Source: Alphaproteobacteria bacterium (GTDB lineage Bacteria > Pseudomonadota > Alphaproteobacteria > GCA-2731375). From it: DNA of 64,000 nucleotides. Location: contig CBDDPY010000002.1 in the NCBI GenBank assembly GCA_965232515.1, positions 4,000,001-4,064,000 of the forward strand, written 5' to 3'. Below the pieces are notes generated by a model that made no database searches, had not been told where the DNA came from, and worked only from the letters and a program-made list of their open reading frames with translations. The translations under genes and the position numbers were made by a program. Shown piece after piece: positions 8,259 to 59,856 of this stretch; positions within the stretch are counted from its first letter, which is position 1; each line of letters begins with the position of its first letter.

Positions 8259-8795
8259 GTGGCGCACGCCATGCTTCTCGGAGCTGTGATCCTCACGTTC
8301 GGCATCTTATCGGCCGCCGCGCTGCTGACAGCCTCGGCGCAGGAAAGAGACCTCGCCGCGCCGGCGATCCAGGCCTACGGCCTGGATCTCGTCGCCTACG
8401 CCACGGTCCGTCGCAACGACGGCACCTACCGGCGCATGCTGATCGCGTCCGATGCGCTCAGGTCCATCACCCCGGACACGTCGCTGCCCGACGGCACCCG
8501 CATTTTGATGGAGACGTACTACCGCCCCGATCAGGTCGGCACGGTGTTTCACAAGCAGAAGGTCCGCGGCAAATGGCAGTACGGCTCGTTTTCCGCCACC
8601 CAGCCCGATCTGACGGTGCAGCCCCGGGCCTCCTGCCTGTCCTGCCACGCCGGCGCGGCGCGGACCGACTTCACCTTCACCCTGCCCAGCATCCGCGCCG
8701 TCGCCGCGGGCGCTGAACCATCGGACTTCACCTGCGACCGCGGCGGCCGCTCGCCCTGCGGCGCCGGCACCTACCGCGACGGCGCCGCGCGGTGA
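8259..8795 (+). CDS. Cytochrome P460/c'-beta-like heme protein
   Basis: Signal peptide, LPDGTRILMETY, WQYGSF, and CLSCH followed by DFTF. Confidence 0.7.
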   Translation: MAHAMLLGAVILTFGILSAAALLTASAQERDLAAPAIQAYGLDLVAYATVRRNDGTYRRMLIASDALRSITPDTSLPDGTRILMETYYRPDQVGTVFHKQKVRGKWQYGSFSATQPDLTVQPRASCLSCHAGAARTDFTFTLPSIRAVAAGAEPSDFTCDRGGRSPCGAGTYRDGAAR

Positions 8796-12050: not shown

Positions 12051-12812
12051 TCACGTCTGCAGCAGCCGCCGCGCGGCGCCGTCCAGGACCAGGCAGGTCA
12101 GCCGGCCGGACCGGAAGGCGCCGGTGTCGATACCGATGCGGTTCGGCATCAGCTCCACCTCCGGCCGGATCGAATGGCCGTGCACGATGATCTTGCCGTA
12201 GTCTTCGGTCGCGTCCAGGAACTCGTCGCGGATCCACATCAGGTCGCCGTCGTCCTGCCGCGCCAGATCGACGCCCGGCCGGACGCCGGCATGCACGAAC
12301 AGGTAGTCGCCCTCCAGGTGCATCAGCTTCAGCCCGCGCAGGAATTCGTCGTGGTCCGGCGGCAAATGCGCGGCCAGCGCCTGCCGGGCCTGGGCCGGCA
12401 TGTCGTCGCCGGCATAGTCGACCATCGGCACGCCATAGCTGGCGAGCGTGGCGTTGCCGCCGTTGTAGAGCCACATGCGGCCGATCTCCTCGCCGTCGAG
12501 GAAGGCCAGCATCAGGTCCTCGTGATTGCCCTTCAGGCAGACCGACTCGATGCCGTCCGCCGGCGCCAGCAGCATGTCGATCACCTCGCGGCTCTGCGGG
12601 CCGCGATCCACATAGTCGCCGAGATGCACGATCGCCACGGTCTTGCCGTCGCCGGCCGCTTCCGAGTCCTGCCGGATCATCTCGTAGACTTCGGTCAGCA
12701 GGTCGGCCCGGCCGTGAATATCGCCGATGGCGTAGATCCGCCGGCCGTCCGGCACGCGGGCGGTCTCGGCCAAGTCGGATTTCGACGAGGACCCGAAGAA
12801 GCGTCGCAACAT
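12051..12812 (-). CDS. Metallophosphoesterase (PPP-type Ser/Thr phosphatase-like)
   Basis: GDIHG, GDYVDRG, GNHE, HGHS and IDTGA motifs. Confidence 0.9.
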   Translation of the reverse strand: MLRRFFGSSSKSDLAETARVPDGRRIYAIGDIHGRADLLTEVYEMIRQDSEAAGDGKTVAIVHLGDYVDRGPQSREVIDMLLAPADGIESVCLKGNHEDLMLAFLDGEEIGRMWLYNGGNATLASYGVPMVDYAGDDMPAQARQALAAHLPPDHDEFLRGLKLMHLEGDYLFVHAGVRPGVDLARQDDGDLMWIRDEFLDATEDYGKIIVHGHSIRPEVELMPNRIGIDTGAFRSGRLTCLVLDGAARRLLQT

Positions 12813-12882: not shown

Positions 12883-15045
12883 TTACGATACGTCCGGCGA
12901 GGCCGGTGACGGGGCGGGCGCCGCGGCCGGCGGGGCGGCGAAATGCGCCCAGGCCTGACGGCCGCCGCGGTTGTCGAGATAGTTCAGCAACGCCAGCACC
13001 GGCCGGTGATCGTAACGCCGGCCGGCGTCCGCCATCAGGGCTTCCGACGCCTGCGCGAAGCTGAGCGCGCCGCGATAGGCCCGTGGGCTGATCATGCCGA
13101 CGAAGGCGTTGGCCACGGCGACGATGCGGGCGGCCAGCAGGATGCGCTCGCCGGCGAGACCCTGCGGCGCCCCACTGCCGTCCCAGGCTTCCTGCAGCTG
13201 CCGGATGGTCTCGACCACCGGCCCGTCGAACGGCACGCCGTCCAGCAGATCGGCGCTGGTCAGGATGCTGTCGCGGATCGTCGCCAGTTCGTCCTGGGTC
13301 AGCCCTTCGGTCTTGGTCAACACCGCTTCCGGCACGAGGATCTTGCCGAGATTCATCAGCGCGCCGGCCACCGCCGCCGTTTCCTGCTCGGCTTCGTTCA
13401 GCGACATCTCGCCGGCGATCGCATGCGCGACCTCGGCGACGCGCGCCGAATGGTTCGCCGAATAGGGATCGCGCCGGTCGACCACGCCCAGCAGCGTGGC
13501 GATCAATTGACGCAGCGTCTCCTCGCGCCGTTCCCGCTCGATCACAAGCTCGGTGACATCGTTGTGGATCATCAACGTGGCGCCGGCATGGACGATATCG
13601 TCGTCCAGCGGCACGTGATCGGCTTTCACCACCCGGCGCTTGTCGTCATCGCCGGTCAACTTGACCACCTCGCTGACGCCGCCATCGGCCGTCACTTTTT
13701 CGTTCAGGCGCTCGAACACCTCGGCGCGAGCCGGACCGAGCACGCTGCGCATATTCTTGCCCAGCATCTCGTCGGCCAGCAGGCCGGCCTGCCGGGCCGC
13801 CAGCGCGTTGGCAAAGGAGTAGTTCCCCTCGGCGTCGATGACGCTGATGCTGGTCGGCTGGCCGTCCGCGACGGTACGCAGGAATCGGCTCAGCGCCTCG
13901 AACCGTTCCGTCGACCGCCGGAAGCGTTCGGCCGCGGCCGAAGCGCGCACCGAGGTGCCGTGCCGCCAGACCGCCACCAGCGCGAAGCCGGCGACGCCGA
14001 TGCCCAGCAACAGCACGATCAGCAAGGTCTGCAGTCGCCGGTCGGTTTCCGCCAGCGCCTCGTCCCGGTCCACCTTGCGCATCAGCACCCATGGCACCCC
14101 GGCCAGCGCCCGGCTGGTGGCCAGCACCTCGTGGCCGGCATAGTCGGTGAAGATGCCGAAGCCGCCAGGCCGGTCCAGCATGCCGACCGCGGCCAGATCG
14201 GGCGTATCGCCGGCCAGCCGCAGGCCCAGTGCCGGCGAGCCGTCACGCAGCGGCGACAGATATTCGACGCCATCGCCGTCGGCCCGCACCAGCATGACCT
14301 CGGCCGTCTCGAGAATTTCGCCCGGCTGCCGCAGCCGCGCGAACAGGGCGTCGCCGGCCGGCCGCAGGCCGATCACGAAGCCGACCACGTTCTCGACCGT
14401 CGCGTCGCCCTGCAGCGCGAAAACCGGCGCCATGAAGCCCATCGACGGCCGGTCGCCCGGGCCGGCATGCAGATCGATGATCCCGGGCTCGTCCCGCGGT
14501 GTCTCGGCCAGCAGGCGCTCCATCTGGGCGCTCAGATCCGGCATCTCCGGCGTCGCCACCAGGACGGCGCCGTCGATGTCCAGCACCGCCAGTCCCGATT
14601 GCGGCACGCGCTCGACATTGGCCGGCACGTCGGGACCCAGCGCCGGCGCGTCATAGCCGCCGCGCGACGCCGTCACGGTCAGCAGATTGCCGAGAAATTC
14701 GGCCTGCGCCTGGACCGCGGCCCGGGCCTTGCGGTTCAGCGTCTTGCCGCGATTGGCGTCGTGTTCGGTCAGGAACAACTGCACCGTCGCGTTCTCGGCC
14801 AGGCCGTTGATCGTGTCGCGCTGCGCCGTCAGCCAGTCGGACACGGCGGCGGCGCGGCTGTCGGCGACGATGCCCAGCCGGATCTGCCAGGTCTGCAGGT
14901 CGCGCTGGCGTTCGGCCTCGACGAATTTCAGCACCGCGGCAATGCCGAGCACCGCCAGCAGCGCCAGCACGAACGCCGAGGTCGCCACGACCACGGCGGC
15001 CCGCATGCCCGGCCGGCGGCCGGATTCGTCAACGATGCTGACCAC
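12883..15045 (-). CDS. Inner-membrane Cache/PAS protein with degenerate HD-GYP domain
   Basis: GGAGG RBS and GTG at 15045; two TM helices flank a periplasmic domain, then PAS, then HD-GYP fold with MNLGK, LQE and GAP replacing HDIGK, HHE and GYP. Confidence 0.85.
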   Translation of the reverse strand: MVSIVDESGRRPGMRAAVVVATSAFVLALLAVLGIAAVLKFVEAERQRDLQTWQIRLGIVADSRAAAVSDWLTAQRDTINGLAENATVQLFLTEHDANRGKTLNRKARAAVQAQAEFLGNLLTVTASRGGYDAPALGPDVPANVERVPQSGLAVLDIDGAVLVATPEMPDLSAQMERLLAETPRDEPGIIDLHAGPGDRPSMGFMAPVFALQGDATVENVVGFVIGLRPAGDALFARLRQPGEILETAEVMLVRADGDGVEYLSPLRDGSPALGLRLAGDTPDLAAVGMLDRPGGFGIFTDYAGHEVLATSRALAGVPWVLMRKVDRDEALAETDRRLQTLLIVLLLGIGVAGFALVAVWRHGTSVRASAAAERFRRSTERFEALSRFLRTVADGQPTSISVIDAEGNYSFANALAARQAGLLADEMLGKNMRSVLGPARAEVFERLNEKVTADGGVSEVVKLTGDDDKRRVVKADHVPLDDDIVHAGATLMIHNDVTELVIERERREETLRQLIATLLGVVDRRDPYSANHSARVAEVAHAIAGEMSLNEAEQETAAVAGALMNLGKILVPEAVLTKTEGLTQDELATIRDSILTSADLLDGVPFDGPVVETIRQLQEAWDGSGAPQGLAGERILLAARIVAVANAFVGMISPRAYRGALSFAQASEALMADAGRRYDHRPVLALLNYLDNRGGRQAWAHFAAPPAAAPAPSPASPDVS

Positions 15046-15111
15046 GTCTCGTCTCCTCCGGCGCCGCCGCCCGGCGGACGGGCGGGCGCCCCGCAGTTCC
15101 AAAGGCACGGC

Positions 15112-15128
15112 GTTAAGCCGCATTTAAC
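15112..15128. promoter_or_regulatory. CtrA full binding site
   Basis: GTTAA-GCCGCAT-TTAAC matches TTAA-N7-TTAAC on both strands, in a divergent promoter. Confidence 0.7.
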
Positions 15129-15194
15129 GACCTGTCGGCAAGCTCGGACCAGGCAGGCGTTTCGCTGCTGCTATACGGGGGCAACCGGAAACAT

Positions 15195-15875
15195 ATGGTT
15201 AATGCATCCTTTCGCCGCGGTGTCCTGTATGGCGGTCGAACCGTATTGCTGGCCGTCGTCGCCGCCGCCATGACCTGGACGTCCACCGCCCAGGCGCGCG
15301 CCCTCGGCGGCGGCATTTTCGGTTACACCGAGGTGCGCAGCGACGACCTCGGCCCGTTCGTGAAATGGACCGGCATGCTTGACCGTTTCCTGCAGGAAGA
15401 CGGCGAGACCGACGGCGATTGCACCTCGACCAGCTACAACGCCTGTCACCACCAGGAATGGCAATCGCTGATCGCCGACCTGCGCGGCCTGGACCTCAAC
15501 GCCCAGCTCGACCGGGTCAACCGCTTCATGAACGAGCGCCGCTATATCGTCGACCCGATCAATTGGGGCGTGCGCGACTATTGGGCGACGCCGGGTCAGT
15601 TCTTTCGCAAGCAGGGCGATTGCGAGGACTACGCCATCGCCAAGTACCTGACCCTGCGTCAGCTCGGCATCTCGGACGCGCAGATGCGCATCGTCGTGCT
15701 GCAGGATCTGAATCTGGGCATTCCGCACGCCGTTCTGGCGGTCGCCACGCCCGACGGCACCATGATCCTCGACAACCAGATCAGCCAGGTCGTCGACGAC
15801 CGCGTCATCCGCCACTATCAGCCGATCTACTCGATCAACGAAAGCGCCTGGTGGCTCCACCGCCCGCCGAGCTGA
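15195..15875 (+). CDS. Transglutaminase-like cysteine peptidase (BTLCP/LapG-like), exported
   Basis: Signal peptide (RR..AQA); DYWATP, GDCEDYAIAKY, HAVL and LDN give the Cys-His-Asp triad. Confidence 0.9.
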   Translation: MVNASFRRGVLYGGRTVLLAVVAAAMTWTSTAQARALGGGIFGYTEVRSDDLGPFVKWTGMLDRFLQEDGETDGDCTSTSYNACHHQEWQSLIADLRGLDLNAQLDRVNRFMNERRYIVDPINWGVRDYWATPGQFFRKQGDCEDYAIAKYLTLRQLGISDAQMRIVVLQDLNLGIPHAVLAVATPDGTMILDNQISQVVDDRVIRHYQPIYSINESAWWLHRPPS

Positions 15876-23333: not shown

Positions 23334-23453
23334 CCCCGACTGTCCGACCGGCGGTTGCTTGAATGCCGGTTCAGATGCGGTCATCCTGAACGCATAACAA
23401 GCGTTGCCCGGAACCTTCGGACCGGGAGCGCCAAAAACGGGAGGGTGGGCATC

Positions 23454-23963
23454 ATGATCCGCATGCTGTTTGCGGCCGGCCTGAGCGTCGGCCTGATGGC
23501 GACAACGGCTGTCGCCGGGCCGGAAAACGTGCAATGGCCGGGCGACTACAAGACCAAGTTCACGAACTATTTCAACGGCGACCGCACGGCGAACGACAAG
23601 CAGGTCATCCGTGTCTTCGCCAACGGCACCGCCATGCAGGGCGCCGGCGCGGACGGCAAGCTGCCCTACGGCTCGGTCTTGGTTGGCGAGCTGTACAGCG
23701 TCAAGCTCGACGCCGACGGCGAGCCGGTCGAGAGCGTGCTCGGCCGCCGCATCGCCGAAAAGTTCTCGGCCATCGTCGTCATGGAGCGTGGCAAGGACTT
23801 CGACGCGGAGTATTCAGACGACCTCAAGGTCGGCGACTGGGAGTTCGCGGTGTTCAGCCCGGACGGCAAGCGGCTCGACAAGGACATTACCGGTTGCCGC
23901 GCGTGCCATCACCCGCTCACCGAAACCGAATACGTCTGGTCCTACGAGCACCTCGTGCGCTGA
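23454..23963 (+). CDS. Cytochrome P460/c'-beta family protein
   Basis: Signal peptide, LPYGSVLVGELY, VMERG, GDWEFAVF and CRACH. Confidence 0.85.
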   Translation: MIRMLFAAGLSVGLMATTAVAGPENVQWPGDYKTKFTNYFNGDRTANDKQVIRVFANGTAMQGAGADGKLPYGSVLVGELYSVKLDADGEPVESVLGRRIAEKFSAIVVMERGKDFDAEYSDDLKVGDWEFAVFSPDGKRLDKDITGCRACHHPLTETEYVWSYEHLVR

Positions 23964-26023: not shown

Positions 26024-27382
26024 ATGACAGTGACCAATCGTGTGCAGGTATTGCCGCTTGCCGGCCCCCAGGGCGCGCGGCGCGGCATCGAGGATGCCGG
26101 ACATGTCCGGCTGGCGCTCGCCATACTGACCGCGCTGTTTGCCGTTCGCGTGGGGCTGCAGCTGCTGCAGAGCCTGGTCGATCTGCCCGCCGTGCCGGCC
26201 TTCGCGGCCTGGGACAGCGGCCTCTTGCCCTATCCCTGGCTGCTCGGCGCGCAGATCGCCATCCTGGCCATGCAATTGCGTTCGATCCGCGCCGTCGACG
26301 GCCGCGCGCGGCCGCGTCGGGGCACGGCGCTCGCAATCCTGGGCGGCGTCTATTTCATCGGCATGCTCGCCCGCGCCGTCATCGGCATGGCGTCGCTGTC
26401 GGATAACGTCTGGTTCCAGGCGCCGCTGGCGACCTCGTTTCATCTCGTGCTGGCGAGCTTCCTGATCGTCCTCGGCCTGCATTGGCGCCGCGCCGGCGCG
26501 GCGCCGGCGGGACCGCGTTCGAAAGCCGCCCGGTGGCTGCTCTACCCGCTGACGCTCGCCGCGGCCGTGGCGCTGTTCGCCTGGTCGACCAGGAATGGCC
26601 TGCCGGTCATGTTCGCCGCCTATCACGCGGCCATGCTCGGCATCGCCGTTGTCGTCATCGCCGAACAGCTTCTGCCCTATCGGCCAAGCTGGCGTCCGGA
26701 CCGGGCCGAGACGGCGACGGACGCGCTCTACCTGTTGACGGTGCAGATGGCGCTGCCGGCGCTGCTGTCGTTGGGCCTCGCTTCAGTTCTTCTCGGCCTC
26801 GACCTGCCGAAAACGGCGCTCTGGCCGCATGCCTGGCCGGTCACCGCGCAGGTGCTGTTGATGCTGCTCGCCGCCGATTTCGCGCGTTACTGGTTGCACC
26901 GGGCCTGCCACGCCTGGGCGCCGCTGTGGCGGCTGCACGCCGTGCACCACGCGCCGGAGCGGCTGCACGCGCTCAACGTCTGCCGCTTTCACCCGCTGGA
27001 AAAGACCCTGCAGTTCACGCTCGACGCCCTGCCGTTCGTGCTGCTCGGCGTCGCCGAACCGGTCGTCGCCGGCTATTTCGTGGTCTATGCCATCAACGGT
27101 TTCTTCCAGCATGCGAACGTGGACCTGCGGCTCGGCTGGCTGAACTGGATCGTCGCCGGCCCGGAACTGCATCGCTGGCATCATGCCCGCGAGCCCCGCC
27201 TCAGCGACCACAATTTCGGCAACAACCTGATCGTCTGGGACGCCGTCTTCGGCACCCGCTGGCTACCGCGGGGTGAGGCCGTCGACGCGCTCGGTCTCGT
27301 CAACCGCGCCTATCCGCGCGGCCTGCCCGCCCAGCTTGTCGCGCCGTTCCGCATCGACCCCAACCGCACGGAGGCGATCTGA
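26024..27382 (+). CDS. Sterol desaturase/fatty-acid hydroxylase family protein with extra N-terminal membrane domain
   Basis: His boxes HRACH, HAVHH, FQHAN and HRWHH; GGAG RBS. Confidence 0.85.
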   Translation: MTVTNRVQVLPLAGPQGARRGIEDAGHVRLALAILTALFAVRVGLQLLQSLVDLPAVPAFAAWDSGLLPYPWLLGAQIAILAMQLRSIRAVDGRARPRRGTALAILGGVYFIGMLARAVIGMASLSDNVWFQAPLATSFHLVLASFLIVLGLHWRRAGAAPAGPRSKAARWLLYPLTLAAAVALFAWSTRNGLPVMFAAYHAAMLGIAVVVIAEQLLPYRPSWRPDRAETATDALYLLTVQMALPALLSLGLASVLLGLDLPKTALWPHAWPVTAQVLLMLLAADFARYWLHRACHAWAPLWRLHAVHHAPERLHALNVCRFHPLEKTLQFTLDALPFVLLGVAEPVVAGYFVVYAINGFFQHANVDLRLGWLNWIVAGPELHRWHHAREPRLSDHNFGNNLIVWDAVFGTRWLPRGEAVDALGLVNRAYPRGLPAQLVAPFRIDPNRTEAI

Positions 27383-29088
27383 TGCGCCGACTCTGGCAGG
27401 CCATGGCCCGGCGCGCGCTGCCGCTCGCCATGGCCGACATCGACCGGCGACAGCGGGCGCCGCTGCTGACGGCGGCCGACGACCCGGAAGCGACGCAGCT
27501 CCGCCTGCTGCTCGACATTCTGCGCGCCAACGCCGAAACGGACTTCGGCCGCGATCACGGCTTCGCCGACATCACCGACTGGCAAAGCTTCCGCGCCGCC
27601 GTGCCGGTGCAGACGCATGAAAGCCTGCTGCCGGCCATCGACCGGCAGGCCGCCACCCGCGCGCCGGTCCTCACCACCGATCCGCCGCTCTGGTACGCCC
27701 GCACCAGCGGCACCACCGGCCGGCCGAAAGACATTCCCGTCACCCGGCGGACCGCGGCGCTGAACCGCGCCGCGCAGCGCCAGACCGCACTCACGCTCCA
27801 ACGTCAGACCCGGTTCTTCGACGGCGAGATCCTGGCCTTCAGCGGCCCGGCCGTCGAGGGCCGCCGCGACGACGGCGCCGCCTACGGTTCGGCCACCGGC
27901 CACGCCTATGCCAAGACGTCGGCCCTGGTCCGGTCGCTGTTCGTGCTGCCGCCCGCCGTCTACGCGATCCCGGACTACGACCTGAAATACTACGTCGCGG
28001 CCCTGCTCGGCCTCGGCGCGCGCCGCCTGACCGGCCTGGTGGCGGCGAACCCCTCGACGTTGCTGAAGCTGATCGAGACCATCGAGACGCACCGCCAGAA
28101 CCTGCTCGCCGATCTCGGCGGCGGCCGGGCGGCCTTCCTCGACCGGCTCGACCCGCCGGCGCGTGCGGCCGTCGCCCGCCGCTTGCGTGCCGCCACACCG
28201 CCGTCGGACCGCCTCCGGCGCGTGCTGGCCGACGACGGCCCGATCCGCCTCGCCGACCTCTGGCCCGACCTCGGCGCCGTGCTCACCTGGACCGGCGGCA
28301 GCTGCGGCATCGCCATCGAGGCGCTGCGCCCGCACCTGCCCACCGACTGCCGCATCGTCGAGGTCGGCTACCGTGCCAGCGAGGTCACCGCCACCGTCAG
28401 TATCGATGCCGACGAGACCGGCTGCCTTCCCATGCTGCGCCATGTCGTGTTCGAGTTCGTCGAACGGGACGCCTGGGAACGCGGCGAACCTGCCTTCCGC
28501 ACGCTCGGCCAGCTCGAAACCGGGCGCCAGTACTACGTCTTCATCACCACGGCGGCCGGCCTCTACCGCTACGACATGAACGATGTCGTCGAGGTCACGG
28601 ACTGGACCGGCCGCACGCCGATGCTGGCCTTCGTGCGCAAGGGCCGCGGCGTCACCAACATCACCGGCGAGAAGCTGACCGAGCCCGATGTCATCGCCGC
28701 CGTCGCGCAGGCGCTCGCGGACATCGGCCGGCGTTCGCCGTTCTTCGTCGCGCTCGCCGACGCGCGGATCAGGCGCTATGACCTGCTGCTCGAGGCGGAC
28801 GCGACACTCGGCGCGGACCAGACCCAGCGGCTCGCCAAGGCGATCGATTCCGGGCTGCGCCGACGCAACCTCGAATACGACGCCAAGCGCGCCAGCGGCC
28901 GGCTCGAACCGCTGCGGGTGGTGCCACTCGGTTCCGGCGCCGGCGAACACTGCAAGCGCGCGGCGCTGCAACTCGGCCAACGGGAAGCGCAGTACAAACC
29001 GGTCTGCCTGGCCGACCGCGCGGACTGGCCCGTCGATCTCACTACTTATGTCGTGTCGGAGCAGCGGCAATGCGCGACGGCATCCTGA
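27382..29088 (+). CDS. GH3 family acyl-adenylating enzyme
   Basis: TSGTTGRPKDIP, YRASE, GLYRYDMND and ITGEKL; TGATG coupling. Confidence 0.9.
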   Translation: MRRLWQAMARRALPLAMADIDRRQRAPLLTAADDPEATQLRLLLDILRANAETDFGRDHGFADITDWQSFRAAVPVQTHESLLPAIDRQAATRAPVLTTDPPLWYARTSGTTGRPKDIPVTRRTAALNRAAQRQTALTLQRQTRFFDGEILAFSGPAVEGRRDDGAAYGSATGHAYAKTSALVRSLFVLPPAVYAIPDYDLKYYVAALLGLGARRLTGLVAANPSTLLKLIETIETHRQNLLADLGGGRAAFLDRLDPPARAAVARRLRAATPPSDRLRRVLADDGPIRLADLWPDLGAVLTWTGGSCGIAIEALRPHLPTDCRIVEVGYRASEVTATVSIDADETGCLPMLRHVVFEFVERDAWERGEPAFRTLGQLETGRQYYVFITTAAGLYRYDMNDVVEVTDWTGRTPMLAFVRKGRGVTNITGEKLTEPDVIAAVAQALADIGRRSPFFVALADARIRRYDLLLEADATLGADQTQRLAKAIDSGLRRRNLEYDAKRASGRLEPLRVVPLGSGAGEHCKRAALQLGQREAQYKPVCLADRADWPVDLTTYVVSEQRQCATAS

Positions 29089-30194
29089 CGCTCGCCACCT
29101 TCCCGGCGGCGCTGCGCACGACCTTCCGGCATGCATCCGCCACCCGCCGTGCGACGGAGAATGTCATCGTCCGCGTCGGCGGCGCCGACGGCATCGACGG
29201 CTATGGCGAGGCCTGCCCGCGCGGCTACGTCACGGGCGAGAGCGTCGAATCGGTGGCGCGGTTTCTCCGGCGACAGGGACCGGCGCTGGCGAGCGAGATC
29301 CGCTCGGTCGCGGCGTTGCAGGCCTGGATCGCCGCGAACGGTGAGCTGATCGACGCCAATCCGTCCGCCTTCGGCGCGCTGGAGATCGCGCTGCTCGACC
29401 GGCTCGGCCGGCGGTCGAACCTGACACTGGAGCAACTGATCGGCGGCGCCCGGCGCGCCGGGCCGTTCCGCTATACCGCCGTGCTCGGCGATTCGACCCT
29501 GCCGACGCTGGCGTTGCAGGCGCTCGCCTACCGATTCGCCGGCCTCACCGATGTCAAGATCAAGCTCGGCGGCGATCCCGCGCGCGACCGGCGCAAGTTC
29601 GCGCTTCTGCGCACGCTCTTCGGATCGCGCCTGCGCCTCCGGACCGACGCCAACAACCTCTGGCGTCAGGCCGCCGAATGCACCAGCCATCTCAGATGCA
29701 TGGCGCCGCACCTCTGGGCCATCGAGGAGCCGCTGGCGCCGGGCGATCTCGACGGCTGCCGCGCCGTGGCCAAGGCCCTCGGCCTGCGGATCGTCCTGGA
29801 TGAAAGCGCCTGCCGGGCCGAGCAGCTCGACGCGCTGGCGGCCGACCCCGAGACCTGGGTGATCAACATCCGCGTCTCCAAGATGGGCGGAATCCTGCGG
29901 TCGCTGGAGGTCGCGCGGCGGGCCGCCGAGCGCGGCCTCGGCGTCATCCTCGGCGCCCATGTCGGCGAGACCAGCATCCTGACCCGCGCCGCGCTGGCCG
30001 TGGCGGCCTGCGCGCCCCGTCCGGCGATCGCCATGGAAGGCGCCTTCGGCACACGCCTGCTGGCGTCCGACATCGTCACCGCACCGGTCATGTTCGGCCG
30101 CCACGGCCTGCTCGATCCGCAACACCAGCCCTGGGCGCGGCAGACGGGTCACGGCCTGCGCATCGACGCGGACGCCCTCATGCCGATCCACTGA
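29070..30194 (+). CDS. Enolase-superfamily enzyme (MR/MLE, dipeptide-epimerase-like)
   Basis: GEACPRGYVTGE, KIK, DAN, EEP, DES, NIRVSKMGG and GAHVGETSIL. Confidence 0.9.
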   Translation: MRDGILTLATFPAALRTTFRHASATRRATENVIVRVGGADGIDGYGEACPRGYVTGESVESVARFLRRQGPALASEIRSVAALQAWIAANGELIDANPSAFGALEIALLDRLGRRSNLTLEQLIGGARRAGPFRYTAVLGDSTLPTLALQALAYRFAGLTDVKIKLGGDPARDRRKFALLRTLFGSRLRLRTDANNLWRQAAECTSHLRCMAPHLWAIEEPLAPGDLDGCRAVAKALGLRIVLDESACRAEQLDALAADPETWVINIRVSKMGGILRSLEVARRAAERGLGVILGAHVGETSILTRAALAVAACAPRPAIAMEGAFGTRLLASDIVTAPVMFGRHGLLDPQHQPWARQTGHGLRIDADALMPIH

Positions 30195-52511: not shown

Positions 52512-54038
52512 CTAAACCCGCTTCGATGCCCAGCGCGCCACCAGCGGCAGGGCCTGCGCGGCCTCGGGGAAGACGTCCATGAACATGTCGCGGTACCAGG
52601 CCGTCTCCGCCGCCGCGCCGGCCGCCGCCGGCGCCGCCGCGGCCAGCAGCCTGTCGGTGCCGCTGCCCTGATCGAACTGGGCCTTGCGGCGCCAGACGAT
52701 GTCGTCGGGCAGCAGATCGGCGAAGGCGCGGCGCAGGATCCATTTCTCGATCCCGTCGCCGCCGTCGGCCGCCGCGCGCAGCTTCAGCGCCGGGTCGATG
52801 CGCATGGCGAGATCGATCATCTCCAGGTCGAGATAGGGCACCCGCGCCTCCAGCCCATGCGCCATGGTCATCCGGTCGACGCGCTGCAGGTTGATGTTGT
52901 GCATGGCCGTGATCGACCGGCGCAGCTCGCGGCCGAGCCGGGCGCCGTCGGCATAGTCCTTGTGGTAGGCGTAGCCGGCGAACAGCTCGTCGGCGCCCTC
53001 GCCGGTCAGCACCACCTTGACCCGCTGCGCCGCCTCGCGGGCGACGAACCAGGTCGGCGCCGCGCTGCGCACCAGGTCGGCGTCGAACGATTCCAGGTGG
53101 TAGAGGATCTCCGGCAGCGCCCGCAACAGCTCGTCGGCGGGGATCACGTATTCGTGGTGCGTGGCGCCGATATGCCGGGCGACATGGCGCGCCGCGGCAA
53201 GGTCGTCGCTGCCCTCCAGGCCGACCGCGAAGGTGTGCAGCCGGTCGAGATGCCGTTTGGCGAGCGCGGCGATGATGCTGGAATCGAGCCCGCCCGACAG
53301 GAATGCGCCCAGCGGCACGTCGCTGCGCAGCCGCTTCACCACCGCCCGCTCCAGCGTCGCGCGCAGGCGCGCCGCCGCCGCCGCCGGATCGGTGAGCGCC
53401 GCGGTCGGCGCCGGCACGGCGTAATAGGGCGTCAGGCCGGCGCCGACATCGCTATCGTCGCCATCATCACCGCCGTCGCCGATGCCACCATCGATGCCGC
53501 CGTCGAAGACATGGCCCGGCGGAAACTCGCTGAGCGTGTCGACGCGGCCGGTCAGCGCCTTGATCTCGGACGCGAGGTAGAGCGCGTCGTCGCGGCGGCC
53601 GATATAGAGCGGCTTGATGCCGATCGGGTCGCGCGCCGCCAGCACCCGGCCGCGGTCGCTCAGCACGAAAGCGAACATGCCGTCCAGGCGCCGCACGAAG
53701 TCCGGCCCGTGGGCGCGACAGCCGTGCAGGATCGGCTCGGAATCGCTGCCCGTGCGAAACGTCGCCGCCGGCGTCCCGGCGGCGAGATCCGCGCGCAGCA
53801 CCGCGTCGTTGTAGATCATGCCGTTGGCGATCAGCGCCGCCGCGCCGTCGGCGGTGGCGAGCGGCTGCGCGCCGCCTTCAGGATCGATGATCGCCAGCCG
53901 CTTGTGGCCCAGCACGCCGCCGGCGCGGTCCAGCCGCCGGCCCTCGCCGTCCGGCCCGCGATGGGCCAGCCGCTCGAGCATCTCGCCGACAATCCCCTCG
54001 CCCCCCGCCGCCCCGCGCACGAACGCAATCCCGCACAT
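52512..54038 (-). CDS. Asparagine synthase B-like amidotransferase
   Basis: MCGI, HRGPDG, LSGGLDSS, TGEGADELFAGY and EARVPYLD. Confidence 0.9.
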   Translation of the reverse strand: MCGIAFVRGAAGGEGIVGEMLERLAHRGPDGEGRRLDRAGGVLGHKRLAIIDPEGGAQPLATADGAAALIANGMIYNDAVLRADLAAGTPAATFRTGSDSEPILHGCRAHGPDFVRRLDGMFAFVLSDRGRVLAARDPIGIKPLYIGRRDDALYLASEIKALTGRVDTLSEFPPGHVFDGGIDGGIGDGGDDGDDSDVGAGLTPYYAVPAPTAALTDPAAAAARLRATLERAVVKRLRSDVPLGAFLSGGLDSSIIAALAKRHLDRLHTFAVGLEGSDDLAAARHVARHIGATHHEYVIPADELLRALPEILYHLESFDADLVRSAAPTWFVAREAAQRVKVVLTGEGADELFAGYAYHKDYADGARLGRELRRSITAMHNINLQRVDRMTMAHGLEARVPYLDLEMIDLAMRIDPALKLRAAADGGDGIEKWILRRAFADLLPDDIVWRRKAQFDQGSGTDRLLAAAAPAAAGAAAETAWYRDMFMDVFPEAAQALPLVARWASKRV

Positions 54039-54289
54039 CGCCCATCACCCCGCGCCCAAGACACCCACGCGGCCACCCCCACCGCCGCGCCGCCATCATA
54101 GGGACCAAGCCGTAATTGTCGAACGGCCCCTGCCGGGCCGCGGCGGCGAGAGGCCATCGAAACCGACGAACTGCTTCACACCTGCCGTGATCGGCACGTC
54201 GCGGCCTTTGCCGGACGCTTACCAACTGGTTCACGCAACGATTAGTGCACTGTCACCGTAATCGGCGTCCGACGGATCGAATTAGCGTT

Positions 54290-54526
54290 CTATTTTGGCG
54301 AATCGGGATCTTTCACCCAGACGGGGATGTCGGGACGAGTGAACCTCGCACCCGTGTTCGCTTGCATACAGTCCATCAGATATGGCGCCACGTCAGGTCT
54401 TTTCTCCAACGTGAGAGTTTCGCCCAGTTCTTGGGCAAACCATGCCACAGCGGTCGCATCGTCATTTGCATCAACCTGCATAAATGGATCGGTGAATGGC
54501 TCGCGCCACAGTCTGTAGACTGCCAT
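54290..54526 (-). CDS. Hypothetical protein (78 aa)
   Basis: AGGAGG RBS before ATG; no family recognised. Confidence 0.6.
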   Translation of the reverse strand: MAVYRLWREPFTDPFMQVDANDDATAVAWFAQELGETLTLEKRPDVAPYLMDCMQANTGARFTRPDIPVWVKDPDSPK

Positions 54527-54695
54527 GAAGCCCTCCTGCCAAGCCCCGTCACAATAGCCGCGTCAATCAGCGCAATCGCGAAACGCTACACTAGCGATGC
54601 AGTTAGTCTAAGCCTGAACTGCGCGCTCTCGATTTGACGATTTGGCACACCATCGTCGTTGTGGAAGAAAGAGCGAGAGGACCAATCGTTTGTGC

Positions 54696-55301
54696 TTAGG
54701 CGAGGCCCTGGGCAAGAAGAAATTTCGCCCAGAAGTCTTTTGCCACCGTGAACACATCGACAGCAGGTCGGTTGTCGCCGGCGGCATCCCTGATTTTGAG
54801 CCTATACGTCGTCGTTGTAGTTTCACGCCCCGATCCGTCAACGTTGGCCGTGCCCCGTACAGAGTTGGATAACAGGCTCGACGGTGCCGAAATCGTCGCG
54901 CTAGCTGTAGTTTCAACAACATCCGCCGGATAGAAATCTACCGTCATGTGCTTCGAGCCGTTGGCTACATCCTGGCATAGGCTTAGCTCAGGGCACTGCT
55001 GCCAAAGGAACCTTTTGAACCACATGGGCGGCATTCCCCGGTTCGCATCTGGTTTGGTTCTGGATGGTGACGTTGGTGCGACCAATAAATCTTGAGCCGA
55101 GACGTCGCTCTCGAACTTCGCCTTCCAACACCAGTCTACCAGGAGCCAAGCCGTGATCGCGGCATTAATGCCGTGGTCACTAATGCCATCACGTGAATGC
55201 GAAGCGCTTACTACGCGGGCAATCTCGCGCTCAAGCTTCGCAAGCATGCCGCGCGGCGCATCGAGCGCGAAAGATAAGCGTGCCGGCGTCGCCACGGCCA
55301 T
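54696..55301 (-). CDS. Hypothetical protein, possible HEPN-like fold
   Basis: Helical, with NAAITAW..VDW and CQDVANGSKH motifs. Confidence 0.65.
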   Translation of the reverse strand: MAVATPARLSFALDAPRGMLAKLEREIARVVSASHSRDGISDHGINAAITAWLLVDWCWKAKFESDVSAQDLLVAPTSPSRTKPDANRGMPPMWFKRFLWQQCPELSLCQDVANGSKHMTVDFYPADVVETTASATISAPSSLLSNSVRGTANVDGSGRETTTTTYRLKIRDAAGDNRPAVDVFTVAKDFWAKFLLAQGLA

Positions 55302-55405
55302 CAGATTTTACCTTATTGTCCACCGTCACTTCCGAAACCGACGCCACAGTCGGGATGACGGAAACCCTTAGCATCCACAATGATGCCGACGTATATCGGC
55401 GACCG

Positions 55406-56248
55406 TCAATCCGGATCGACTGTACCGGTATTGCCAAGAGCTTTTTGGTCCCGCTGCTCTATTCTATTGCGTTTGGTTTCGGGCAACGAATCGTAGACAG
55501 CCTGCACATGTTTGGGTTCGCTGATCATTTTCTCAGCAATCAGGTTGACGAGCCGGAAAAGAGTTTCTGCTGTCCCTCGGTCATCCTTCAAATCAATCTG
55601 CCCTGGATGAACCGCTTCATTGCCGATAACCCGAACAGCATCCAATGACTGTTGCACTCGCGTATCCAAGCCTTTTTTAACGAGGTCCCCGATCCTGTCG
55701 TCCAGAGACTTTCCTTTCGCGTTCAACTCGACGCAGATCTTTTCGATGCACAGTCGCAACAATGCGGCTGCACCACGCGGTGAAAGATCGAGGATCGATC
55801 GAGCTTCTTCATAATCCGCACTGATCTCATCGGACAAATCTTCGTTCGGCGGCGGGCCGGTCCTTTCGGGTGGGAATAGAAGTCGGTCATGCACCCAAAC
55901 TGCAATCTCTCCGCATGTATAACATTTGCTCAGATGGAGATTTGCCGCCTGAGTTTCGCTGTAGCAAGTAGCTGCTCCTATGAAGAACACCCTTCCCGTC
56001 AAGTGCTGCTTTATCTGCCTAAGCACCTGATCATAAAGCTCCTTGTCTGGATGAGGCGCCTTTTCTATTCGATGCAAATCGTCCTGATCAGGAACCGTAG
56101 GTAAGGCTCCCTTATCCTTCTTCTGGACGAACAAGCAATACCAATACTGGTGCGTAAAAGCTCCGCAATGGGGGCAGCTAAAGGCTTCGGCCCTAATTGA
56201 AGGTGCCGCAGGGCCTCTCGTGTTTGGTGTTTCTTCGATGTTAGACAT
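55406..56248 (-). CDS. Zn-ribbon plus DUF4145 (HEPN) domain protein
   Basis: CPHCG, CYTCG, SPRGAAALLRLCIE and RVIGNEAVHPG. Confidence 0.85.
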   Translation of the reverse strand: MSNIEETPNTRGPAAPSIRAEAFSCPHCGAFTHQYWYCLFVQKKDKGALPTVPDQDDLHRIEKAPHPDKELYDQVLRQIKQHLTGRVFFIGAATCYSETQAANLHLSKCYTCGEIAVWVHDRLLFPPERTGPPPNEDLSDEISADYEEARSILDLSPRGAAALLRLCIEKICVELNAKGKSLDDRIGDLVKKGLDTRVQQSLDAVRVIGNEAVHPGQIDLKDDRGTAETLFRLVNLIAEKMISEPKHVQAVYDSLPETKRNRIEQRDQKALGNTGTVDPD

Positions 56249-56710
56249 GGAACGTCATTTTCAGATGCTGCGGATCAAACCGATTCGGTTGGAAAACCAC
56301 ACAAATTGCACATCCCATGATTGTAGCATGGTCCGATCTCGAAGCCGTGATGTCGGCTACTCTGCCAACGGATATAGGATCCATATTCGAATTATTGTGA
56401 CAGTGCTGAACTACGGTGACAGTGCACTCAACTTAAACTGGTTATGAGTTCGCGCACCAATTTGTACACCATCAACGTAATCCAGGAAGCCAGCGCCGCC
56501 CTAGAAATCACCGGCGATAATCCGTGCCATCACATCGTCGTCGAGATTGATGGTCGTATCCGCGACGTTGATCTACGTTGCGATGATGGTACGCGTCTTT
56601 CTGATCGATTTTCTTTCGCCATCCAATTAGATTACTGTTGCCTTAATCTTCGGTCTTTCCTGCGTTAATCGGCTGAATCCCGCATACAATTCATCAATAT
56701 TTCGGTCGCT

Positions 56711-57808
56711 CTACAACAAGATCCAAATCAAAATAAAAAACACAATAATAAATATAAAGCACCCGTTCAAAAAACTCGAAATACCGCTTCGATCTTGAAT
56801 ATTTGATTTCAATACACGTTCAACTTTTCGTATTTCACGCGCCATCTCTCGATTCCAGTTTTTTGGCAAGCTAAGCTCAATTGTTTCTGTTACAATAACT
56901 GGCTCATCACCTTGGCCACTCGTGAGTTCGTCTATGTTTTCAACAATATGATCCAGTTTGTCTGGGATAACCGAAAACTTATCCGCTTGCGACCCAAGAC
57001 AATCCTGCAACAGAGAAACTAGGCGCTCAAATTCCTCCGAAACTCTAACAAATCGAGTTCTCTCCTCGTGATGAACAATCTGCCGCAAGTTTTCATGAAT
57101 GAGGCGGCAAGTATGGTGTATCTCTTCGATGTCTCCTGCTTCGCCTAGTTCACCCCAACTTGCTGTCAAGCGATCCAACAAGCTTTCCATGGGCCCGACT
57201 AAAGACGTCATTTCGGCCATCCGGGACCGCATCCATTCGATCACTTCTTCGTCGGGAATCGTTTCTAAGGGATGCGTGTAATAGCCTCTCCGTAGATCTT
57301 CCAACTGACGAAAGAGCGGACGATTGAGATGCCGCAATAGCTCTGCGGTTAATCGCCATTCCCATCCAGGCGGCTTATCAATGACTATCCGGCGAACAAC
57401 AGGCGGGTATTGCGAAAACTCGGAAAGTAACTCACCTTCCAATTCTGCTCGAACCAGGTCGCTCTTGTTTCTCAATTTTGACGCGATTCGTTTCTCGTGC
57501 TCTTCGCGCCATTTGAAAAGCAGATCTTCAGGATAAAGACCAGTGTCGTGATCGACCTTCTTGTGACAATTGCGGCATAGCCAAATAGCATTCGTTATCT
57601 CGCCGCGTGCGGCGTCAGACATTTCTGCGACGTAACGTGCGCTTCCAGCGCGAGCACCTCGAATATGAGCGGCTTCCCCAATTAGCGTCGCTTTGTTGGG
57701 ATCTGAATTAGGGCCGATAGTCGACACTCCGCAATCTGGATTCGAGCAACAGAATCCAGCGCGCTTTGCCAGTGTTTCAATTGTCTTATTGCTAAAATCT
57801 GGATTCAT
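56711..57808 (-). CDS. HNH endonuclease-domain protein with C-terminal TM helix
   Basis: CCSNPDC, GEAAHI and NAIWLCRNCHKKVD; hydrophobic tail FIFIIVFFILIWILL. Confidence 0.8.
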   Translation of the reverse strand: MNPDFSNKTIETLAKRAGFCCSNPDCGVSTIGPNSDPNKATLIGEAAHIRGARAGSARYVAEMSDAARGEITNAIWLCRNCHKKVDHDTGLYPEDLLFKWREEHEKRIASKLRNKSDLVRAELEGELLSEFSQYPPVVRRIVIDKPPGWEWRLTAELLRHLNRPLFRQLEDLRRGYYTHPLETIPDEEVIEWMRSRMAEMTSLVGPMESLLDRLTASWGELGEAGDIEEIHHTCRLIHENLRQIVHHEERTRFVRVSEEFERLVSLLQDCLGSQADKFSVIPDKLDHIVENIDELTSGQGDEPVIVTETIELSLPKNWNREMAREIRKVERVLKSNIQDRSGISSFLNGCFIFIIVFFILIWILL

Positions 57809-58019
57809 ACGAGTGCAAGATCGCTGATTAACCTAAAATCCTATCAGGCTTGCACCGAACTACCAAATATATTGATAATAAACATTTATCTTATCTATGT
57901 TATTATTTCATCTTATCTTCTTCACAATTCACTAAACGCAAGAGAACACCTCGCGTATTCGATTGATATACCAGTAGGTGCTGACCCCACTTTCATCCTG
58001 GCTGAGATGGCAATGCACT

Positions 58020-58113
58020 TTTCTTCGAGCGCCGTCGGTCGGACAGTCGTCCGCAGCGTAGTCACATATCGCAAGGGATTTGCGCCAGCTAGCGGCGAGA
58101 CGACGACCTTCAC
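58020..58113 (-). pseudogene. parE toxin remnant, N-terminal part, frameshifted
   Basis: GTGA overlap with the antitoxin; MKVVVSPLA, then LAICDYAADDCP in a shifted frame. 3' limit approximate. Confidence 0.6.
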
Positions 58114-58542
58114 GACGTGTGCTTTGGTGCCCGTTTCGCGATTTCCTCGGCGACCTTGTCAAGGTCGTAACAATCGTCCGGATGCGCATCGGCGTGTTCG
58201 ATCGCCGTCCGGATCTGCGCCTTTTTCCAGGCGAGATATTCGGGGTAGTCCGACTCCGGCTGCGGCGGCGTCGCCTCGTCGATTGTCCGCGGCTTGTCGT
58301 CCGGCATTGCTCGATCTCCGGGAATCACTAAGCCACGCACCGCCATCGATGCGTGCGCCATTCCTAAAGATCGCATATTTGTATTTCTAAGCAATCAATA
58401 AGCGTGGGAATTAGAGCGACGAACGCGCCGCCCAACCTTGGCGCCTTCGCGTCTTGGCGGTGAAAACCCGTTTGTTCTCTGCGCCTTCCCCGCCTCATCG
58501 GTTCCCCAAGCTTACTCCGCCGTCTCGGCCCGTTCCCCCGTC
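58102..58542. repeat. Diverged direct repeat of about 59438-59887 (mscS tail, spacer, antitoxin, toxin start)
   Basis: Alignable by eye across the whole segment, including the last 31 bp of mscS. Confidence 0.9.
58110..58307 (-). CDS. Putative antitoxin, copy 1
   Basis: GGAG RBS; EYLAWKKAQIRTAIEHADAHPDD; overlaps a parE-like start. Confidence 0.65.
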   Translation of the reverse strand: MPDDKPRTIDEATPPQPESDYPEYLAWKKAQIRTAIEHADAHPDDCYDLDKVAEEIAKRAPKHTS

Positions 58543-58557
58543 CACGGCAACGCATCC

Positions 58558-59244
58558 CTATTCAGGACGCCAAGCCCACGCCAAAGGTGGCGGCAAACGC
58601 CCAGCGCAATAATCAATGCGCAGCGTCCGACGACCTGTCAGCCGTGCCGACGTCCGAGAACGATGCAGCGTCAGCGCCTTGACAAAAAGAACATCGCCGC
58701 GCTGGGCCCGGCAGATCTCAAGCGGCGCGGATCCGGCGACAACATCCGCGTCTCCCGCCTTCACCCGCCCATGCGCATGGCTGCCGAGGGCCAGCTCAAG
58801 GCAACCGTTTTGCGCGTCGGCATCGTCGAGATGAACCCGCGCGAAAATCATGTCGCGCAGGAAGTCGATCGGCGGCTCGACATGCCAGACCCCGGCTTTC
58901 CTTGTCCAGGCGTGGAAGCCGTCAACATCGTGCCTTTCCCGCACCGCGATCACCCGGTCCTGATGCCACGGCACGTTCCAGTTCAGATCCGTGGACTTGT
59001 TGAAGACGACAACGCGCACCGGCACCGCGCCGGGCAGAAGGCGTCGCGCCAAGTCTGTCAACCCGCTCCCGACTCCGACCGTCCGCGCCAGACCTTCATT
59101 CCAGTCCAACCGCGCTCCCGGCGCACCCGACACCTCGCAGGCCCGGTCCAACAACCTGAGATCGTCCGCGCCCAGCGCGCCCCGAAACCAGACCCGGCCG
59201 TCGCGCTCAAGGGCGGTTTCATCTGAACAAAATGGCGCTCCCAT
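58558..59244 (-). CDS. PhyH family dioxygenase
   Basis: FNKS..NW.VPWHQD, RVHLDD, GSH and LHRS..RR.LRIDY. Confidence 0.85.
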   Translation of the reverse strand: MGAPFCSDETALERDGRVWFRGALGADDLRLLDRACEVSGAPGARLDWNEGLARTVGVGSGLTDLARRLLPGAVPVRVVVFNKSTDLNWNVPWHQDRVIAVRERHDVDGFHAWTRKAGVWHVEPPIDFLRDMIFARVHLDDADAQNGCLELALGSHAHGRVKAGDADVVAGSAPLEICRAQRGDVLFVKALTLHRSRTSARLTGRRTLRIDYCAGRLPPPLAWAWRPE

Positions 59245-59295
59245 GTTGTGCCCGTTAGGTCAGCGTCGTGACGAATTCGCCTAAATGCCTGGATG

Positions 59296-59346
59296 GAAGC
59301 CGGCGCGGGCTTCGTCCTCGACCATCTCCTTGATGCGGCAGGCGAG
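59296..59346. repeat. 51-bp copy of an mscS internal segment (59956-60006)
   Basis: 3 mismatches in 51 bp. Confidence 0.9.
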
Positions 59347-59349
59347 ACA

Positions 59350-59449
59350 TCAGGGCGCGTCCGGCCACTGTCGGCGTGTATGAATGATGCCAAGCATGCG
59401 GATCTGGTCCGGCTGAACGCGATAGACGACGCAATAGGACGACCTTCAC
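59350..59449 (-). pseudogene. parE toxin remnant with internal deletion (C-terminal part)
   Basis: MKVV joined out of frame to YCVVYRVQPDQIRMLGIIHTRRQWPDAP*, a typical ParE/RelE C-terminus. Confidence 0.75.
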
Positions 59450-59643
59450 GACGCGTGCTCAGATGCCCGTTTCTCGATTACCTCGGCAACCTCGTCGAGG
59501 TCATAGCAATCGTCCGGATGTGCATCCGCGTGTTCGATCGCCGCCCGGATTCGCACCTTTTTCCAGGCGAGATATTCGGGATCGTCCGACTCCGGCTGTG
59601 GCGTCGTCGCCTCGTCGATGGTCCGCGGCTTGTCGTCCGGCAT
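59446..59643 (-). CDS. Putative antitoxin, copy 2
   Basis: Paralogue of 58110-58307 with the same RBS. Confidence 0.65.
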   Translation of the reverse strand: MPDDKPRTIDEATTPQPESDDPEYLAWKKVRIRAAIEHADAHPDDCYDLDEVAEVIEKRASEHAS

Positions 59644-59856
59644 GGCTCGATCTCCGGAAATCATTGTACCACGCACCGCTGTCGATGCGTTTGCCACACC
59701 TTATGATCGTATATTTCTATTTCCAAGCAATCAATAAGAGCGCAACTTGCAGCGACGAAGGGGCTACTCTTTCTTGTCGTTCTTGGCGCCTTCGCGTCTT
59801 GGCGGTGAAAACCGTTTGTTCTCTGTGCCCTCGGCGCCCTCTGTGGTTCCCCAACC

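Follow-up and report, generated by a model that had tools for sequence, protein, structure and literature searches.

Results

A receptor gene and a protease gene lie head to head

The DNA analysed here, hereafter the window, is a stretch of 64,000 nucleotides from an alphaproteobacterium (assembly GCA_965232515.1, contig CBDDPY010000002.1, positions 4,000,001 to 4,064,000 of the forward strand). At window positions 12,883 to 15,875 it carries two divergently transcribed genes, which are the subject of this report. Gene A encodes a membrane receptor with a degenerate HD-GYP domain, and gene B an exported cysteine protease of the bacterial transglutaminase-like cysteine proteinase (BTLCP) family. 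Judged by homology, the locus is no new kind of system: its published relative is the DvhD/DvhG pair (DVU1020/DVU1019) from Desulfovibrio vulgaris Hildenborough, here found in an alphaproteobacterium. The features of the pair are as follows, in window coordinates.

12883..15123, minus strand: gene A, DvhD-like receptor, 746 residues as called (open reading frame (ORF) and Pfam domains)
14926..15000, minus strand: first transmembrane helix, about residues 42-66 (hydropathy, read from the sequence)
14038..14925, minus strand: periplasmic dCache domain, about residues 67-362 (AlphaFold2 model and Foldseek)
13960..14037, minus strand: second transmembrane helix, about residues 363-388 (hydropathy windows at residues 363-370)
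13531..13884, minus strand: cytoplasmic PAS domain, residues 414-531 (Pfam PAS_4, TIGR00229, alignment to the DvhD PAS domain in 9rc0)
13006..13485, minus strand: degenerate HD-GYP domain, residues 547-706 (Pfam HD_5, alignment to 9rbz)
15124..15194, no strand: divergent intergenic region, 71 bp (188 bp with gene A starting at M40) (ORF coordinates)
15195..15875, plus strand: gene B, exported LapG/DvhG-like BTLCP cysteine protease, 226 residues (Pfam Peptidase_C93, E 5e-19)

Pfam places HD_5 at residues 547-706 of the gene A product (E 1.9e-33) and PAS_4 at residues 422-526 (E 3.1e-09), where TIGR00229 also matches (E 1.7e-07). Hydropathy outlines a segment of about 300 residues between two hydrophobic stretches, about residues 40-66 and 363-388, the first of which has windows above 1.8 at residues 39-53. 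The Pfam scan of gene A returned no LapD_MoxY_N, HAMP, GGDEF or EAL domain. The true start of gene A may be M40, at nucleotide 15006, because the alignment of most orthologs begins near residue 40. The region between the genes presumably holds the promoters of both.

The N-terminus of the gene B product reads, by eye, as a signal peptide. Its triad of C143 (within GDCEDY), H178 and D193 aligns with that of LapG in the best PDB matches of the protein, 4fgo (E 1.9e-22) and 4u65_E. Catalytic C, H and D are invariant among 39 gene B orthologs, as are the G, C, E and last D of the GDCED segment, and the first D is present in at least 90% of them; in DvhG, the calcium site consists of the D and E that flank the cysteine (PMC13090378). 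By these alignments the active site of the protease is intact. Against the NCBIfam equivalog model for LapG the protein scores 102 bits, below the cut-off of 320, and it is best described from its sequence as a LapG relative and not a LapG equivalog. Gene B is the sole BTLCP gene of the 7.39-Mb genome, which is 96% complete.

No LapD-type protein is encoded within the window, and inspection of the genome's six EAL proteins found none with the LapD layout of LapD_MoxY_N, HAMP and degenerate GGDEF and EAL domains. A profile search of the genome with LapD_MoxY_N (PF16448) gave no match, a result that is weak alone as the 14 control genomes gave none either. If this genome regulates a LapG-type protease, the gene A product is the only candidate receptor found. 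An earlier note, made from the letters of the window, had described the gene A product as a transmembrane, periplasmic, transmembrane, PAS and HD-GYP protein that had lost nearly all of its metal ligands and kept RxYR, lying head-to-head with an exported BTLCP with an intact triad in a window without lapD. That description agrees with the present domain matches, hydropathy, motifs and alignments.

The HD-GYP site has lost most of its metal ligands and keeps part of its nucleotide pocket

All of the motifs named in the earlier note are present in gene A. HD is replaced by MN (LMNLGK at 589), HHE by LQE (at 643), GYP by GAP (residues 651-653, in GSGAP at 649) and VADxF by VANAF (at 670), and RxYR is kept (SPRAYR at 679). 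The loss is not total, as the first His (H558) and E645 remain.

We compared these positions among receptors of the window kind, here called type 1. From 53 loci examined, 42 type-1 proteins were retained (the window protein and 41 orthologs), each from an ORF of at least 600 residues with an alignment of 550 residues or more, and genes that were split or truncated were left out. At the HD motif all 42 proteins have Asn for the Asp, and M, L, I or A stands for the His. Q takes the place of the second His of HHE in 36 of the 42, and 40 have N where VADxF has its Asp.

DvhD contacts cyclic di-GMP (c-di-GMP) canonically through Y523, L577, K582, Y621, M646, R650, Y652 and E668 (PMC13090378). Five of these eight are retained in the window receptor (Y, L, M, R and Y), and the other three are L, A and A. 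Among the type-1 proteins the equivalents of L577 (41/42), M646 (38/42) and R650 (41/42) are retained, that of Y652 is aromatic in 41/42, and that of Y523, a Tyr in the window receptor, is F, Y or H in 41/42. In the bridging site, the P567 equivalent is P in 38 of the 42 and the K520 equivalent is R in every one. From this pattern of conservation, the dead HD-GYP site is ancient and its pocket is partly retained. Almost certainly the gene A product is no enzyme; it is likely to bind a nucleotide, with the identity and affinity of that ligand less certain than for DvhD.

The receptor is a relative of DvhD

When gene A was compared with all PDB sequences, its best match was the PAS/HD-GYP part of DvhD (9rc0_A; E 1.7e-38, 136 bits, residues 423-721). 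The c-di-GMP-bound structure of the DvhD HD-GYP domain, 9rbz, matches at E 1.5e-32, and the best-scoring active phosphodiesterase, 5z7c, reaches 70 bits. The periplasmic domain gave no match to PDB sequences, either as a single sequence or as a profile of 36 sequences (E up to 1), and its link to DvhD therefore rests on a comparison of folds. An AlphaFold2 model of residues 60-372, built from 36 orthologs (alignment A1), has a mean per-residue confidence (pLDDT) of 91.6 and a predicted TM-score (pTM) of 0.87. Its top Foldseek match in the PDB is 9rc2, the periplasmic domain of DvhD (E 1.9e-10, TM-score 0.78 on the target, 18% identity), which ranks above the dCache domains of PctA, PacA and others. 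The long first helix of the model is split in two (H2-50 and H53-64), matching the published description of DvhD (PMC13090378). When the mature protease (alignment A2) was modelled in complex with the dCache domain (A1, residues 8-306), the prediction scored 0.17 and 0.13 against a mark of 0.32, without control runs; it speaks neither way on binding.

A second receptor type, type 2, occurs in G002, G026, G027 and G028 of the same family and in G214 and G417 of another. These receptors are 24-31% identical to the window protein over their full length, one of them at 28% with E 5e-48, and one matches DvhD by sequence in both parts (222 bits to 9rc0; E 1e-22 to 9rc2). They carry SQ in place of HD, as DvhD does (3/3 sequences), and keep GYP. 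In all six genomes the type-2 receptor lies directly downstream of a BTLCP gene on the same strand, and in four of them the order is ABC, HlyD, BTLCP, receptor, as seen from Pfam matches in G002 and G026 and from ORF sizes and BLAST in G214 and G417. In G028 an ABC gene precedes the BTLCP and receptor genes, the HlyD gene not having been captured. The genome of the window carries type 1 only, and closer DvhD orthologs, those of type 2, are found in related genomes. By sequence, type 2 links the window protein to DvhD; taken with the PDB sequence match and the modelled fold, this makes the window protein a relative of DvhD, beyond a mere look-alike.

Two observations concern the type-2 loci themselves. 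The ABC gene of the ABC-HlyD-BTLCP-receptor operons is C39-like, and in G214 and G417 no more than 10 kb separates a type-1 divergent pair from a type-2 operon.

The pairing with a protease is conserved, with exceptions

Among 401 alphaproteobacterial genomes, the class sample, 70 carry a full-length type-1 ortholog, defined by E 1.6e-97 or lower. Receptor coordinates were compared with BTLCP matches on the same contig, with a limit of 1.5 kb. A BTLCP lies within that distance in 57 of the 70 genomes (52 divergent, three on the same strand and two convergent), one of the 57 being a weak remnant; in two more it lies at 2.3-2.6 kb and in one at 12 kb. Two tallies over this sample, 100/401 and 135/401, each take in one genome that carries an unpublished flag (G063, G237), and no other result depends on these genomes. 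The family to which the window belongs was represented by 33 genomes; a receptor homolog occurs in 28 of them and a BTLCP in 20, each of which also carries the receptor. A search of genome contigs for related loci gave one true relative, in an Alphaproteobacteria metagenome-assembled genome, at 86% identity. By these sequence matches the pairing holds across the class sample, although not in every genome.

Decayed or sub-threshold BTLCP remnants were seen beside an intact receptor at locus L005 (G032) and at G060:C24:13304-13471. They suggest that in these genomes the protease was lost and the receptor kept.

Gene neighbourhood

The gene directly downstream of gene A encodes a phosphoesterase.

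12051..12812, minus strand: PPP-family metallophosphoesterase, directly downstream of gene A (Pfam Metallophos, E 2e-16)

This protein has no signal peptide, as judged by eye, and its NCBIfam matches, to Ser/Thr phosphatases, ApaH and PrpE, are weak and fall well short of every cut-off. Neighbours were surveyed at 20 class-level loci, with the low-GC relatives L086 and L087 assessed by tblastn. In 8 of these loci the gene immediately following that of the receptor is a homolog of the phosphoesterase, and the other 12 lack it; it is possible, from this arrangement, that the phosphoesterase is a third partner of the pair. The RND-type pump beside gene B in the window is a conserved neighbour in none of the 20 loci.

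Candidate substrates lie elsewhere in the genome

Four exported proteins of the genome carry the motif A-x-(I/L)-A-P-A-A-G. As putative substrates of the gene B protease they are leads, not findings.

One is a giant RTX adhesin of 8219 residues (C2:7076479-7101138) with a FecR-like N-terminal domain and, directly downstream, ABC and HlyD genes of a type I secretion system (T1SS). The motif follows the FecR/retention-like N-terminal domain, with PAAG at ORF residue 336. It is kept in four of nine close homologs, even at identities of 35-49%, those of G024, G005 and G029 being 35-79% identical. The five others lack it, and in one of these five a contig end truncates the homolog. Two further carriers are tandem FecR-domain proteins of 915 and 942 residues, and the same motif is found in their relatives in G024, G005 and G010.

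The fourth protein is a TpsA adhesin of 1262 residues with a two-partner secretion (TPS) domain. Its tail reads VAQIAPAAGP and then has two cysteines, and a ShlB/POTRA TpsB gene adjoins. CdrA, of the CdrA/CdrB system, likewise has a di-alanine protease site near its C-terminus and a cysteine hook. In Pseudomonas aeruginosa, CdrA is released by LapG (PMC4694147). The likeness to CdrA has its limits: the TpsA gene lies about 670 kb from the protease gene, its tail is nearly limited to its own genus, and its cleavage site is putative. The tail was found in 3/33 genomes, of its own genus plus one marginal match, and this narrow distribution ruled it out as an explanation of the class-wide pairing.

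Other genes around the giant RTX proteins deserve mention. A gene for a CHASE2-adenylate/guanylate cyclase lies downstream of the T1SS genes of the giant adhesin and one for a VpsR-like sigma-54 activator upstream (G000:C2:7071168-7073378 and 7105141-7106532; loci L065 and L067), and both proteins may regulate the adhesin. A second giant RTX protein, of 7816 residues (G000:C2:7033333-7056783; L063, L064, L069), has a lower GC content at third codon positions and an HlyC-type acyltransferase gene upstream. Its gene looks like part of an integrated mobile element, since an integrase gene, Trb/VirB conjugation genes and a C39-type ABC exporter gene lie nearby.

Discussion

In the LapD/LapG system of Pseudomonas fluorescens and Legionella pneumophila, a dead c-di-GMP-turnover domain serves as the receptor that controls a periplasmic BTLCP protease, which cuts adhesins at [T/A/P]AAG. 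The window pair appears to follow the same logic, with a protease homologous to LapG and a receptor that is unrelated to LapD and has none of its domains. We think it fairly probable, from homology and by analogy with these systems, that the pair is an alphaproteobacterial c-di-GMP module of the DvhD/DvhG type, in which the receptor restrains a protease that releases surface proteins.

We propose a model where the gene A product is an inner-membrane receptor that would bind a cytoplasmic nucleotide, most likely c-di-GMP, without hydrolysing it. Binding would bring about an inside-out conformational change through a dimeric stalk and the membrane helices, and the receptor would thereby restrain the periplasmic, calcium-dependent protease of gene B. 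A drop in nucleotide level would free the protease to cut surface proteins at [T/A/P]AAG and so release them from the cell. Its candidate substrates would be the giant RTX adhesin, the CdrA-like two-partner-secreted adhesin and the two FecR-domain proteins. DvhD/DvhG and LapD/LapG are the basis on which we infer that a nucleotide is bound, which way the signal runs, that the protease is controlled and what it cuts.

DvhD combines a periplasmic domain with a PAS domain in the cytoplasm and an HD-GYP domain for which inactivity is predicted; it binds c-di-GMP with a dissociation constant of about 322 nM and, in a P. fluorescens strain, keeps the LapG-like protease DvhG under a control that depends on c-di-GMP (Karbelkar et al., PNAS 2024, PMC10990149). 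Its periplasmic domain is a dCache domain, its HD and HH are replaced by SQ and MN, and binding of c-di-GMP splays its stalk helices (Font et al., Nat Commun 2026, PMC13090378). The window pair shares the whole layout of the receptor (transmembrane helix, dCache, transmembrane helix, PAS and an HD-GYP domain without metal ligands), the VANAF variant, RxYR and most of the residues that clamp the nucleobases, as well as the partnership with a LapG-like BTLCP that has a Cys-His-Asp triad and a D-C-E calcium motif.

The window pair also differs from DvhD/DvhG. The two periplasmic domains have no detectable sequence similarity, HD has become MN in the window protein and SQ in DvhD, and the window genes are divergent whereas the dvh genes are co-directional. 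The dvh operon includes T1SS genes and a giant adhesin gene, whereas the window locus has neither and relatives of it often have a PPP phosphoesterase gene. The window protease has a putative signal peptide where DvhG has a membrane anchor, and the host is an alphaproteobacterium in place of a Desulfovibrio.

The earlier note had proposed that a dead HD-GYP domain has convergently taken the role of LapD and gives inside-out c-di-GMP control of adhesin release. That mechanism is probably right, by homology: the receptor part and the direction of signalling find support in DvhD/DvhG, and the part that concerns a T1SS adhesin finds none at the locus. The note had also known of no description of this architecture; on this it was wrong, as the two Dvh papers of 2024 and 2026 show (PMC10990149; PMC13090378).

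Several results weigh against a c-di-GMP module that controls adhesin release, and some of them bear on the ligand. Three of the c-di-GMP contacts of DvhD are lost in the window receptor: L stands for K582, and A for both Y621 (the Tyr of GYP) and E668, which is specific for guanine. The three columns are variable in the orthologs, with Q at the Y621 position in 17/42, and at the bridging site R569 has become A in the window receptor and is E in 29 of the 42 type-1 proteins. Because these three contacts are not retained, the affinity or the ligand itself could differ from that of DvhD. A receptor of the same family may then read 3'3'-cGAMP, pGpG or a linear dinucleotide, with the PPP phosphoesterase as part of the signalling and the protease still under control. 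It would fit with this that 3'3'-cGAMP can be accommodated by DvhD, as can pGpG and c-di-AMP more weakly (PMC13090378), and that the phosphoesterase gene, with its faint likeness to ApaH, PrpE and Ser/Thr phosphatases, follows the receptor gene both in the window and in a minority of the class loci. We nevertheless regard a change of ligand as unlikely, given that most canonical contacts and RxYR are retained, that the genome encodes GGDEF and EAL enzymes and so has c-di-GMP signalling, and that the phosphoesterase falls far short of the family cut-offs and is missing from most of the surveyed loci.

Other adverse results concern the protease and its targets. No BTLCP was found on the receptor contig in 10 of the 70 class genomes, where some contigs end beside the gene and some genomes are fragmented, and a BTLCP match is missing from 8 of the 28 family genomes with a receptor homolog. 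The 1.5-kb flanks of all 17 orthologs in genus g3 are free of a BTLCP: 7/17 genomes lack any BTLCP and 10/17 keep the orthologous protease elsewhere, at 47-62% identity. At the three g3 protease loci examined (L056-L058; G019, G004 and G005), the gene lies among exopolysaccharide genes (Bac_transf, Wzy_C, GT1), with GNVR/Wzz at the loci of G004 and G005. A PPP-family Metallophos gene adjoins the displaced protease in two of the three (G019 and G005), and in G019 the receptor and protease genes are 7.4 kb apart on the same contig. In G032 a decayed remnant is all that is left of the protease beside the receptor. These cases argue that the receptor can have a role without the protease. On the side of the targets, no T1SS or adhesin gene lies beside the pair within the window, and none of the 20 class-level loci encodes a protein of at least 600 residues with an (I/L)AP-type AAG site. 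The giant adhesin has 2 [T/A/P]AAG sites against 3.7 expected from its composition, and its single N-terminal PAAG is not by itself beyond chance. Its N-terminal domain scores 24-27 bits on the NCBIfam model retention_LapA, for which the cut-off is 50.

The persistence of the receptor in lineages without a BTLCP would also suit a sensor that works from the outside in. Here the dCache domain would bind a small molecule in the periplasm, the dead HD-GYP domain would be a module for interaction or dimerisation, and the protease would be co-regulated and not controlled. dCache domains are typically ligand sensors, and the other top structural matches to the periplasmic model are ligand-binding domains of chemoreceptors or kinases. 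We hold this to be quite unlikely, as the residues of the nucleotide pocket are conserved while the catalytic ones are not, the pairing with a BTLCP recurs in most genomes with the receptor, and the nearest relative in both structure and sequence is DvhD, for which the Dvh papers report inside-out control as reconstituted and no periplasmic ligand as found (PMC10990149; PMC13090378). That the receptor is a still-active c-di-GMP phosphodiesterase with an unusual catalytic site is highly improbable. It has an HD-GYP fold, and H558 and E645 remain, but across the orthologs (36-42 of 42) other residues stand in for the HD dyad, for both His of HHE and for the Asp of VADxF, and DvhD, with similar losses, showed no hydrolysis with any metal tested (PMC13090378).

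Taking the locus as a relative of DvhD/DvhG, its practical result is an annotation of gene A as a DvhD-like receptor and of gene B as a DvhG/LapG-like protease. Two departures from DvhD are noteworthy: the gene context, and three residues that contact the nucleotide. In 57 of the 401 alphaproteobacterial genomes sampled, the same types of receptor and protease occur together, and bacteria may therefore commonly use a dead HD-GYP receptor instead of LapD to place the release of surface proteins under c-di-GMP control.

It is tempting to speculate further, although we think the odds are against it, that there is a separate, class-wide alphaproteobacterial branch of DvhDG. It would be a free-standing module of BTLCP, receptor and PPP phosphoesterase, acting in trans through a shared (I/L)APAAG on a giant adhesin secreted by a T1SS, a two-partner-secreted adhesin and Sec-exported FecR proteins, and its remodelled pocket may read a signal besides or instead of c-di-GMP. 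The subfamily described here, which stands apart from T1SS genes and in many cases has a PPP phosphoesterase attached, could reveal how a single protease switch is put to use by more than one secretion route.

The text of both Dvh papers names only Desulfovibrionales for DvhD/DvhG (PMC10990149; PMC13090378), and our literature search for an alphaproteobacterial pair found no description, with only these two papers relevant. The published census demanded 80% BLAST coverage (PMC13090378), and it probably missed any such alphaproteobacterial branch, because the dCache domain of the window receptor has no sequence similarity to that of DvhD. A class-level figure or Supplementary Data 1 of the same paper may already list Alphaproteobacteria, at least for type 2.

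Other features of the window and genome

Several features lie apart from the gene pair. Positions 54000-59800 of the window form a low-GC island, with a GC content of 0.46-0.56 against about 0.68 elsewhere, that encodes a DUF4145 protein and ORFs without Pfam matches; the island was probably acquired horizontally. Two contigs of the genome, C3 (5.5 kb, GC 0.46) and C4 (10.9 kb, GC 0.42), also differ from the chromosome (GC 0.655), and may be small replicons or contamination.

Three adjacent genes at window positions 26024-30194 encode a fatty-acid hydroxylase-domain protein, a GH3-family protein like the auxin-amido synthetases of plants and a member of the MR/MLE enolase superfamily; a bacterial GH3 cluster is unusual. 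Two cytochrome P460-family genes lie at positions 8259-8795 and 23355-23963, the first of them adjoining a cytochrome b561 gene.

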